From Escherichia coli (GTDB lineage Bacteria; Pseudomonadota; Gammaproteobacteria; Enterobacterales; Enterobacteriaceae): a stretch of DNA of 64,000 nucleotides. Location: assembly GCF_002854065.1 (NCBI RefSeq), contig NZ_CP024150.1. The stretch is one strand, 5' to 3'. A program made the position numbers. Shown here piece by piece: positions 12,001 to 15,000 of the stretch (position 1 is its first letter; each line of letters begins with the position of its first letter).

Positions 12001-15000
12001 GGCAGTATTCAGGTCAGCAGTGGGTAAAGTCTGATTCATCACATTGTCTCCTCATCGTCACGACTGCCGGGTCAGCCAGGTCATTTCCCGGAGGAGCGAA
12101 GCTCCTTCTGCCGTCCGGGTCTTCGGGGATTTCCCCGCAGTGGACCTTTCCGACGGGGGACGCTCACCACGTCACGGGGCAGTTGTCCGGGGGCAGACGC
12201 AAAAGTTTTTGACGCCTGCGGCAAAAAGTTTTGTGGCTGGTACATCTCTCCCCTGGACGACTGAAACGGGATGTGGTCGTGTATGTACCCCCGGAAAGTC
12301 CGTCTGCGGAGAACAGGCCGCAGTGCGGCGGCAGACAGGCAGAGACAGCAGCGCCATCAGGCGCAGTGGCCTTACACACCGTCAGGTGTGCAGGGAGCGC
12401 CGCATCCGGCGCGACCGGAGAAAACCGACGGCACAACAACGGCATGCTGTGGTCACTGGTACACCACTCCCGCACAGGTGAAAACAGAGAAAACAGCACG
12501 ACATCTACAATCAAAAAAAGTGAAATTTCTTCACTTTTTCACACTTATTTTTCGCGCTGATTTGGTGATTATGATGATAAAATAAAGTGAAGTTTTTTCA
12601 CTTTTTCAAAGGTATTTTATGACCGGCTGGGAACTGCGAATCTGGCGAAAAAGCATGCTCTGGTCACGCGAAAAAGCGGCCAGAGAATTTGGCGTGACAC
12701 AGAGAACATGGCACGCCTGGGAAAATGCGGAGCAGGTGGATGTCACCGTCTGGAGGACCACCCAGGCACTTTCAGTCCGTGACCTGCTGCCTCACATGCA
12801 GGGGATGCGCAAGGCAGATATCATCAGGCGACTGGAAAATGAACTGGGGGAAACGGCAGAGGATGTGTGAGCGTAATTCACAGCCTGGCTGAATGCCAGG
12901 CTACTGCTCATCAGGAAACAGTTTTTTCAGTTCTTCACCGGAAAGTCCGGTTGCCTCCTGAATCCGTTCCGGCGGCCAGCCCATATCCCGAAGCCGGCAG
13001 GCTATTTCCCGCGCCACTTCAAGCGCCCCTTCTTTAAAGCCTTCTTTAAAACTTTCTTTAAAACCTTCGTCGAAACCTTTCTGTATAAGACGTTCTGCAA
13101 TAGTCATACTGCTCTGCCCCTGCTGGCAAAAAAGCCCGGCATTCTGCCGGGCTGTGATGCTCTCATCAGTGAATGATTTTTTTCAGTTCAGCTTCGGACA
13201 GTCCGGTAGCCTGCTTAATCTGCTCAGGTGTCATCCCCATTTTCTGAAGCTGACGCGCAATGGCCAGGGCCTTTTCAAGCGCACCTTTCTGCTCAAGACG
13301 TTCTGCGATTGTCATCAGTTTATCCTCATGCTGCGGCAGGCGCTCGGCCAGCGCCCGCATAAATTCCGGTGATACAGTGTCCCCTGCGTTAACGATGTAA
13401 TGAATCAGAACACGCACCTGCTCGTCTGAAATTTCCACCATGACCTGCGGGAGTTTGTCCAGCAGCTCCATCATGTCACGATGGCGGATATGCTTCATCA
13501 GCAGCGTCAGTGCGGCCATCCGGCGATGGTTCATGATTTCATTGTCATCAACGACAGTGATATCAACCAGCGGAAACGGCTTTGTGTATATTTTAGCCGC
13601 AAGCGCCGGATTCTCAAAACAGTCCAGCCAGTTCATGCTGTACGGGTACGGGCTGCGCTCACCGTGATAGAACAGCACCGGAATGACCAGTGGCAACGTT
13701 TTGTGCTGCTCCAGATGTCTCTGCATCGCCGCCACACTGTAACGTAACATGCGGAAAGGCATGTACAGATTTTCGGTGCTCTGGTGCTCGATGAGCGTAT
13801 AAACATAGCCGTCTTCACCCCCGGTGATTTTCACACTCCAGAGGATATCGCTGGCGTACTGATGCAGGTCCGGCTCAACAAAGGTGGCGGGTTCCAGCTT
13901 CAGCGTGGACAGGTCGCACAACTGCCGGTACTCCGCCGGAAGATGCAGTTCCAGAAAATCTCTGGCGACGTCGGGATTCGCCAGGAACGACCGGAACGCG
14001 GCATCATGCGGCGTGGGCGTTGTGGTGTTTTTCTTCTTACTCACGGTTCCTCCTGGTGAGATGTTTGAACGTATCCTGCCGCCTGCACAGGCAGACGGCA
14101 AGGGTTAATCAGTGGCAGACCCGTTCAATTTCAAGCGCGCGGAGCAGGTGGCCCCATTCGCTGACTTTCATGGCGGGGATACGCACCCGCTTCTGCTCAC
14201 TGCAGCGTCTGGCGATATGACCGCTCATCGCCAGGACGTCCGGGTTAATCTCATCCTGTGCCAGCTCCTGACGTCTGACGCGGGTATGGCGGTGCAGGGG
14301 TTTATTCTCCCGCAGGCACTCTTCACGCAGACGCTTTACATATTCAGCCGTTGCAAAGATAATTGATGGTCTCACAAATATTTCTCCTTATGTTGTTGAT
14401 GACTGCCGCTCTTCCTGGCGGGGAAGCGACGGCGGAGAGAGGCAGGGTTTATCGCCCTGCTTTTTTCATTCCGGGCAGCGGCGCAGTGCCAGCGCGAGCG
14501 CTTTCATCTTCCAGCCTTCCGGCGTGCGGTACATCACCTTCCAGTAGCCGTCGATGAACACATAATGGAAGCGCACCTCTTCAGTGCTTTCAGTGGCAAT
14601 AGCCTCCATGAAAGAACGGTACTCACGCGCCTCACTGTCCATCCGGAAACCACTGTCACGTCCGTAATAAGCCGTCACACCGTCCACCGGGTTCTGAAGC
14701 GTATGCCCGGCGGGTTTGTCGCAACGGGGACCGAGGCAACGGATATCACCGTGTTCAACCAGGGCTTCGGCCTGCTGACCGGTGGCATAGTGGGTATGCA
14801 GGATGCGACCGTTCCAGGTCGGCTCACCGTGCAGGTGGCAGTAAACGGTACGGAACACCCCGTCGCGGCAAAAAACGGAAATCGTGCTGCTGACTGTCAT
14901 GAAAACGTCTCCTTCTGCTGAATCAGGTCGCCGGGCCGACCGGTTACTCCCCGGAGGGGCGAAAGCCCCTTCTGCCGTCCACTTCTTCGGGGTTTCTCCC

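Follow-up and report, generated by a model that had tools for sequence, protein, structure and literature searches.

A probable Rpn toxin-antitoxin locus with an internal rpnS start and a stand-alone RpnS cassette in the leading region of IncI-complex plasmids

Why would a plasmid gene for an Rpn nuclease carry, within its own frame, a start from which its C-terminal domain could be made alone, and stand next to a separate small gene for the same domain? The question is raised by a stretch of 64,000 nucleotides (nt) of Escherichia coli DNA (contig NZ_CP024150.1, assembly GCF_002854065.1), called here the window, in which rpn, a gene for a protein of 292 amino acids (aa), is followed on the same strand by a gene of 68 aa, rpnSs. 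A preliminary description placed the pair at 12901-14043; both open reading frames (ORFs) are there, and its right-hand end is one base short because rpn starts with a GTG at 14044-14042. We refer to the full-length protein as Rpn or RpnL, to the product of the internal start as RpnS and to the stand-alone protein as RpnSs. According to our analysis it is highly probable that this locus is an Rpn toxin-antitoxin system of the leading region of IncI-complex plasmids, with an internal RpnS and, behind it, an RpnSs cassette that is probably non-cognate.

Judged by its sequence, the large protein is an Rpn-family nuclease. Its residues 11-207 match Pfam Transposase_31 (PF04754) with E = 3e-78, and it scores 166.5 bits against the NCBIfam model of the Rpn family (TIGR01784), for which the cut-off is 52.1; the NCBIfam RpnA model is matched with E = 3e-98, yet the score stays under the equivalog cut-off. 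The protein is 48% identical to RpnE of E. coli K-12, and the alignment to RpnE puts its D14, D66, E85 and Q87 at the positions of D11, D63, E82 and Q84 of RpnA, residues whose mutation inactivates RpnA (PMC5350276). The coding sequence agrees exactly with the one annotated by the Prokaryotic Genome Annotation Pipeline (PGAP) and RefSeq in an identical plasmid, NZ_AP027791.1. A PADLOC scan (2023 library) of Rpn, RpnSs and four neighbours returned no defence-family match for Rpn or RpnSs, and two marginal matches only for the neighbour genes. Near the 3' end of the gene lies a run of seven A residues, and two database variants are altered at this place, the fusion protein P0047 and the frameshifted tail in locus L053; these may be real alleles or homopolymer sequencing errors.

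Is the internal start a genuine one? The preliminary description had pointed to an ATG in frame at 13315 with GAGGA before it, from which a peptide of 49 aa would be made; both signals are present in the sequence, and the product read from this ATG is MTIAERLEQKGALEKALAIARQLQKMGMTPEQIKQATGLSEAELKKIIH (MTIAERLEQKG...KKIIH). It had also likened the arrangement to the intragenic antitoxins of other Rpn proteins, and here the likeness extends to the very residue: Rpn M244-K288 align with residues 1-45 of RpnA-S (PDB 7TH0, E = 1.7e-4), with M244 falling on M1 of the crystal chain, so that the ATG is the positional homologue of the proven RpnA-S start. In RpnA the internal start is likewise M244, and RpnA-S is abolished by mutating K240, E241 and M244 (Zhong et al. 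2023, PMC10400941). Small RpnS proteins made from an internal start are known for all five K-12 rpn genes and for rpn of Clostridioides difficile, and RpnS binds RpnL, blocking both nuclease and toxicity (PMC10400941).

The internal ATG together with its GAGGA occurs in every one of 47 related rpn genes, which represent three types of C-terminal module (A, B and C, see below), and GAGGA is retained in the type C genes despite a change of the following codons from Asp-Lys-Leu to Asp-Ser-Ile. Near-identical homologues of the protein carry a precomputed match to the Pfam family HTH_Rpn_C (PF27070), which is missing from the Pfam copy used for our profile scans. A candidate promoter upstream of the internal start keeps both of its hexamers in 47/47 related rpn genes, but the site lies inside coding sequence. 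We regard it as almost certain that rpn in IncI-type plasmids codes for two products.

The second part of the question concerns the small gene, and the statement that a separate 68-aa gene encodes the same domain as the Rpn C-terminus is well founded: BLASTP aligns RpnSs to Rpn residues 244-290 at 49% identity (E = 6e-13), both begin with MTIAERL, and the difference in their lengths is a 16-residue insertion. At the DNA level the two genes share direct repeats, 12915-13031 with 13171-13287 (71% identical) and 13075-13107 with 13283-13315 (85% identical). The NCBIfam models of Rpn are matched by RpnSs at their C-terminal ends, its near-identical database relatives carry precomputed PF27070, and its newer PGAP name is 'RpnC/YadD family protein'; a Pfam scan with the copy that lacks PF27070 gave a weak Yae1_N match on the repeat region only. 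An AlphaFold2 model built from a 68-sequence alignment has helices at residues 3-41 (with the repeats), 46-53 and 57-63, and its best fold match in the PDB is RpnA-S (7TH0), with a probability of 0.93 and a template modelling score (TM-score) of 0.70 on the target.

The tandem repeat in helix 1 of RpnSs had been described as a 9-bp unit producing (FKE)n, and this period has to be abandoned, as the period found by Tandem Repeats Finder is 12 bp (4.3 copies) and the length variants always lie a multiple of four residues apart. The units GGTTTCGACGAA, GGTTTTAAAGAA, AGTTTTAAAGAA and GGCTTTAAAGAA encode GFDE, GFKE, SFKE and GFKE, with the consensus F-K/D-E-G/S, and TTTAAAGAA is the conserved 9-nt core of the 12-nt unit, not its period. 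The variation of repeat number among related plasmids, named there as a point to check, is found: core lengths of 52, 60, 64, 68, 72 and 76 aa among RpnSs homologues correspond to 0, 2, 3, 4, 5 and 6 four-residue units. Nearly all of about 2,000 plasmids have an unbroken ORF. Among the database homologues there are rare alleles with a truncation or a frameshift, and four database proteins of 220-320 aa (P0137, P0143, P0145 and P0146) are matched by the RpnSs query in two or three stretches, as tandem HTH_Rpn_C arrays.

Where does such a small gene come from? We compared 57 related loci, a set that is not phylogenetically controlled. Whether the tail is of type A or of type B, the DNA of the nuclease domain hardly changes (98-99% identity between the two), and the C-terminal module of Rpn comes in three sequence types, A with 0-4 repeats RQEG/RMEG, B with 3-7 repeats IQKG/IQQG and C with 3-5 repeats IQQG, the window allele being A0. 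The layout of the arrays is Rpn[A, B or C], then optionally a stand-alone A, then D; type D, to which the small gene of the window belongs, is terminal in every locus examined. Its identity to the neighbouring type A is 49%, it is distinct from B and C too, and it does not group with the RpnS of its own upstream rpn, unlike what is reported for RpnCSs and RpnESs. In the three-module plasmids (L012, L013, L030-L039) an Rpn of type B or C is followed by a stand-alone type A gene of 53-57 aa and then by D, with the same terminator hairpin between successive modules. Pairs of Rpn tail and type D repeat numbers were A0 with D4 (the window), A0 with D6, A1 with D2, A2 with D3, A4 with D5 and A3-4 with D0, and no covariation between the two numbers was seen in these loci. 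A nuclease with a type D tail was found neither by a k-mer search of 5.8 billion clusters nor by a HMMER scan of 1.84 billion representatives; the close matches were all of 111 aa or less, and the nearest full-length proteins were 39-50% identical.

At every junction CAC TGA TGA is followed by a GC-rich hairpin and its T-run, and the ATG is preceded by the leader GCCAGCAGG(G/A)GCAGAGCA..GT. The recurrence of this structure shows that the unit is a cassette of leader, module, stop and terminator, and the conserved sequence on either side of it allows cassettes to be gained or swapped by recombination. The arrays can thus be explained, as far as sequence comparison goes, by recombinational insertion or exchange, the former C-terminus remaining downstream as a small gene. 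Rhs and CdiA-CT polymorphic toxins offer a parallel, with a constant N-terminal body, exchangeable C-terminal cassettes, orphans left downstream and conserved recombining junctions; there the exchanged module is a toxin with its immunity gene, whereas in Rpn it is an antitoxin or oligomerisation domain, and every orphan has retained a start codon, so that it can be translated independently. The cassette picture extends, without contradicting it, the published view that recombination generates the downstream small genes (PMC10400941).

A relic of 13 codons, TGLTEDDLAQIRH*, at 43558-43599 on the plus strand resembles the 3' end of another HTH_Rpn_C module and has no rpn body; its neighbours are a parA/sopA-like gene (42086-43291, minus) on one side and an IS3-family element (43929-45100) on the other.

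As to the location, some 2.5 kb separate the locus from the nikA/relaxase side of the origin of transfer (oriT), the nikA and relaxase genes being at about 10.2-10.8 kb of the window, and ardA and psiA follow it; the plasmids are typed IncI-gamma/K1, MOBP and MPF_I. Its genes lie on the minus strand and have the transferred strand (T-strand) as their template. We found the locus in 2,034 plasmids of PLSDB and in 1,378 of 5,426 complete E. coli genomes, where 1,439 of its 1,502 places are on plasmids. Further upstream, in the sense of the minus strand, stands an element that recurs as a direct repeat (96% identical) on the other side of the locus, and whose single-stranded DNA folds into a stem-loop of about 180 nt (-117 kcal/mol, z = -8.2). 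From this fold we infer that both copies are candidate ssi/Frpo-type single-strand promoters; promoters of this type drive early leading-region genes in IncI1 plasmids (PMC12672017). The two co-oriented genes between this element and rpn belong to no NCBIfam or PADLOC family, and orf144, orf88 and rpn probably form one operon.

Table 1. Features of the rpn-rpnSs locus and its surroundings (positions in the window)
Feature	Position	Strand	Description	Basis
rpn (RpnL)	13166-14044	minus	292 aa; GTG start 14044-14042; TGA stop, then a second TGA	
Shine-Dalgarno of RpnL	14054-14049	minus	AGGAGG, 4 nt before GTG	read from sequence
PD-(D/E)XK / YhgA-like nuclease domain	13424-14014	minus	residues 11-207	Pfam match and alignment to K-12 RpnE
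rpnS	13166-13315	minus	in-frame internal ORF, 49 aa; type A module without four-residue repeats; predicted intragenic antitoxin	
internal Shine-Dalgarno	13327-13323	minus	GAGGA, 7 nt before ATG 13315-13313	
candidate internal sigma-70 promoter	13617-13590	minus	TTGAGA-16-TAAAAT, some 275 nt before the internal ATG	consensus scan, single site, 10/12 matches
A7 run	13177-13183	minus	near rpn 3' end; loss of one A fuses Rpn to the rpnSs frame	
linking ORF	13104-13166	minus	20 codons, MRASQPGRMPGFFASRGRAV; ATG overlaps rpn stop (TGATGA), TGA overlaps rpnSs ATG (ATGA)	
intrinsic terminator between rpn and rpnSs	13127-13153	minus	9-bp stem AGCCCGGCA/TGCCGGGCT and T6	terminator scan
rpnSs	12901-13107	minus	68-aa HTH_Rpn_C gene, type D, four four-residue repeats	BLASTP, NCBIfam, fold model
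12-bp tandem repeat	13028-13079	minus	four-amino-acid unit, 4.3 copies, in RpnSs helix 1	Tandem Repeats Finder
diverged cassette hairpin	12882-12902	minus	AGCCTGGC-ATTCA-GCCAGGCT after rpnSs stop, without T-run	sequence comparison
88-aa gene (orf88)	14109-14375	minus	upstream of rpn, co-oriented	ORF and annotation
144-aa gene (orf144)	14466-14900	minus	upstream of rpn, co-oriented	ORF and annotation
ssi/Frpo-like hairpin element	14990-15259	plus	about 300 nt; upstream (minus sense) of orf144-orf88-rpn	
second copy of ssi/Frpo-like element	12125-12418	plus	upstream of a minus-strand DUF4942 gene group	

How might the small gene be expressed? Its start is separated from the rpn stop by a gap of 58 nt which holds the terminator, and the RNA fold of the latter has -28.6 kcal/mol (z = -3.3). 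A linking ORF bridges the gap and is in frame with the small gene in many plasmids, so a translational coupling from rpn to rpnSs through it appears possible from the sequence; an open frame of 20 codons has about a 40% chance expectation, and the ATG of the linking ORF is missing at 7 of 55 junctions. The terminator and the weak ribosome site of the small gene argue for a low or conditional expression of rpnSs.

The explanation we favour may be put as follows. RpnL would consist of an N-terminal PD-(D/E)XK DNA endonuclease toxin and a C-terminal three-helix HTH_Rpn_C domain. From the ATG at 13315 with its GAGGA, ribosomes would additionally make the last 49 residues as free RpnS, which, by analogy with RpnA, RpnB, RpnC and RpnP2, would bind the identical domain of RpnL through its long first helix, giving an L2S2 complex in which the nuclease is blocked; the toxicity of RpnL and its neutralisation by RpnS via helix 1 are taken over from the same analogy. 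RpnSs is a stand-alone cassette of this domain, probably a displaced one. Because its helix 1 is 16 residues longer, it is only 49% identical, and a mismatch of a single repeat abolished neutralisation in RpnC, the type D RpnSs is unlikely to serve the neighbouring RpnL as its main antitoxin, and is more likely a retained non-cognate dimerising protein of RpnS type with the part of a modulator or of a trans-acting antitoxin.

Several points weigh against this explanation. All functions of the window locus are assigned by homology. The type A and type D proteins share MTIAERL-QKG at the start of helix 1, which makes cross-neutralisation possible. A strong terminator (13127-13153) separates rpn from rpnSs, the promoter scan gave no site reaching its threshold for rpnSs, and the ribosome site of rpnSs is degenerate (AGGGG, 11 nt upstream). 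The RpnSs model is of moderate confidence (mean predicted local distance difference test score, pLDDT, 72), its Foldseek E-value against 7TH0 is weak (0.43), and when the PDB was searched by sequence with RpnSs, the matches were designed repeat proteins and 7TH0 was not among them. The selection estimate, with a ratio of nonsynonymous to synonymous polymorphism (pN/pS) of 0.22 outside the repeats and variable sites distributed 3/2/10 over the codon positions, comes from 15 variable sites in 11 non-independent alleles; the low pN/pS, as under purifying selection, and the codon-position bias argue that the ORF is translated.

Could the facts be read otherwise? One may hold that the internal ATG is an ordinary methionine codon and rpn has a single product, the GAGGA lying within His-Glu-Asp codons that are possibly conserved for protein reasons. 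We find this extremely improbable in view of the exact alignment with the proven RpnA-S start, the GAGGA kept in type C genes though the next codons differ, the same ATG beginning every stand-alone cassette, and the use of such a start by the five K-12 rpn genes and that of C. difficile (PMC10400941). A suggestion of more substance is that the 68-aa protein is a second cognate antitoxin which binds the C-terminal or the nuclease domain of Rpn and provides an extra antitoxin buffer: rpnSs is a neighbour of rpn in the same orientation, the two proteins begin helix 1 alike, type D accompanies every Rpn variant while the nuclease domain is nearly invariant, and the RpnESs of K-12 is expressed (PMC10400941). 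The known specificity speaks against it, as one extra repeat abolishes neutralisation and there is no cross-protection between RpnA-S and RpnB-S (PMC10400941), whereas the mismatch in the window amounts to four repeats and 51% of the residues; the repeat numbers of Rpn tail and D do not covary and a terminator stands between the two genes, so we consider a cognate role possible but, on the whole, unlikely.

If the partner of the small protein is not its neighbour, RpnSs may be an orphan antitoxin acting in trans, made early from the transferred strand and neutralising the Rpn of a recipient or of a competitor plasmid, in the sense of anti-defence or plasmid competition. It is favoured by the place of the locus in the leading region, some 2.5 kb from oriT, where its genes are read off the T-strand downstream of an ssi/Frpo-like hairpin and have ardA and psiA as neighbours, as well as by the enrichment of leading regions in orphan antitoxins (PMC11541004) and the diversification of module type and repeat number independently of the toxin in cis. 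Yet the databases searched contained no full-length Rpn ending in a type D module, and thus no target for the orphan; the terminator after rpn would stop ssi-driven transcripts, and a literature search gave no paper that links Rpn to leading regions. We think this reading rather improbable. The small ORF might also be a non-functional, not yet decayed remnant of a displaced Rpn C-terminus, as one could suppose from the upstream terminator, the degenerate ribosome site and the lack of a promoter-like site at rpnSs, from the pseudogene flag of K-12 ypaA in RefSeq, from the 13-codon relic of another module and from the rare truncated or frameshifted alleles. Against a remnant stand the intact ORF in almost all plasmids, the pN/pS of 0.22 with variation mostly at third codon positions, and the detection of tagged K-12 RpnESs (PMC10400941), and we hold it to be quite improbable. 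We may even suggest, as a bolder idea to which we give little credence, that IncI-complex plasmids keep terminator-flanked, independently translatable heterologous RpnS cassettes behind one constant nuclease, with the terminal D as a trans-acting orphan antitoxin or modulator and the array as a recombination reservoir that switches toxin-antitoxin specificity. If this were true, type D delivered from the leading region would disarm the Rpn of recipients or rival plasmids, or would tune the release of the toxin in cis.

With the favoured explanation of a toxin-antitoxin locus that retains a non-cognate cassette, how unusual is the arrangement? The preliminary description had called a stand-alone copy beside the toxin not usual, a claim that fails because Zhong et al. 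(2023) describe stand-alone downstream copies, namely the RpnSs genes downstream of rpnE (ypaA) and of rpnC, and the locus occurs in about a quarter of complete E. coli genomes. The same work documents the variation of four-amino-acid repeats, RpnSs proteins included, the loss of neutralisation by RpnC on one extra repeat, the absence of cross-protection between RpnA-S and RpnB-S, the detection of K-12 RpnESs by tagging, and the protection against T-even phages by the plasmid-borne RpnP2 of ECOR13 (PMC10400941). The window locus is like the systems RpnA-E and RpnP2 in its nuclease domain and catalytic residues, in its C-terminal three-helix domain and in the internal start with a Shine-Dalgarno sequence at the same residue (M244), and like RpnP2 in being on a plasmid. 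Strain-variable four-residue repeats in helix 1 are common to the group, the C-terminus in the window having none; what differs is the leading region of a conjugative plasmid with its ssi-like hairpin, which is not discussed in the main text of PMC10400941.

The closest comparison is with ypaA (rpnESs) and rpnCSs of K-12, likewise small ORFs of the same domain and strand just downstream of rpn, which start with MTIAERL and have a repeat number different from that of the in-gene copy. The gap after the rpn stop is 12 nt for ypaA and 58 nt for rpnSs of the window, there is no terminator in the former and a strong one (9-bp stem, T6) in the latter, and the ribosome site AAGGAG is kept in ypaA but degenerate in rpnSs. 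While ypaA is 75% identical to its in-gene counterpart RpnE-S and differs from it by one repeat, rpnSs is 49% identical and differs by four. Also unlike ypaA and rpnCSs, type D of the window was never seen fused to a nuclease, and some plasmids have two stand-alone cassettes in a row. Annotation of these stand-alone genes is inconsistent, the terms used being 'hypothetical protein', 'pseudogene' and 'RpnC/YadD family protein'; ypaA (L056, 7817-8002) carries the pseudogene flag in RefSeq though tagged RpnESs has been detected (PMC10400941). As for the orphan antitoxins which are enriched in leading regions and have been suggested to act against toxin-antitoxin defences (Samuel et al. 2024, PMC11541004), the likeness lies in a small gene of antitoxin type near oriT, on the side transcribed from the T-strand and in the company of ardA, psiA/psiB and ssb; in the window, however, a complete toxin gene adjoins rpnSs, and PMC11541004 does not mention Rpn.

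The arrangement itself is therefore published and ordinary, in one of the commonest E. coli plasmid families, and what goes beyond the main text of PMC10400941 is only the divergent terminal orphan cassette and the location in the leading region. As the locus re-identifies a published system, the main value of our analysis is a correct annotation, by which the 'hypothetical protein' beside rpn becomes RpnSs. This is of some importance, since the locus is carried by plasmids that spread antibiotic resistance, is present in about a quarter of complete E. coli genomes and is among the first genes to enter a recipient. The natural series of a conserved nuclease with swappable tails and kept displaced cassettes is well suited for testing how repeat number and module type set specificity, and for asking whether orphan RpnS proteins act in trans, a question left open by Zhong et al.

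Some minor observations concern the surroundings. Directly upstream of ardA lies an inverted repeat (16146-16177 and 16353-16384; 32 nt, 91% complementary, arms 175 nt apart), which fits the 'class 2' single-strand promoter hairpin found 5' of ardA in the IncI1 plasmid pESBL (PMC12672017). Two direct repeats of 42 nt (12510-12551 and 12577-12618), each with a palindrome AAAGTGAA..TTCACTTT, stand just upstream of an 83-aa XRE/HTH gene (12619-12870, plus) that is convergent with rpnSs, and are probably operator sites. Many IncI plasmids (L002 at 2442-2831; L016, L022-L024, L040, L045) have an insertion of about 498 bp that is not in the window, with a 129-aa ORF which overlaps the rpn start by 4 nt and is mis-named 'cobalamin biosynthesis protein CbiX' in some records.

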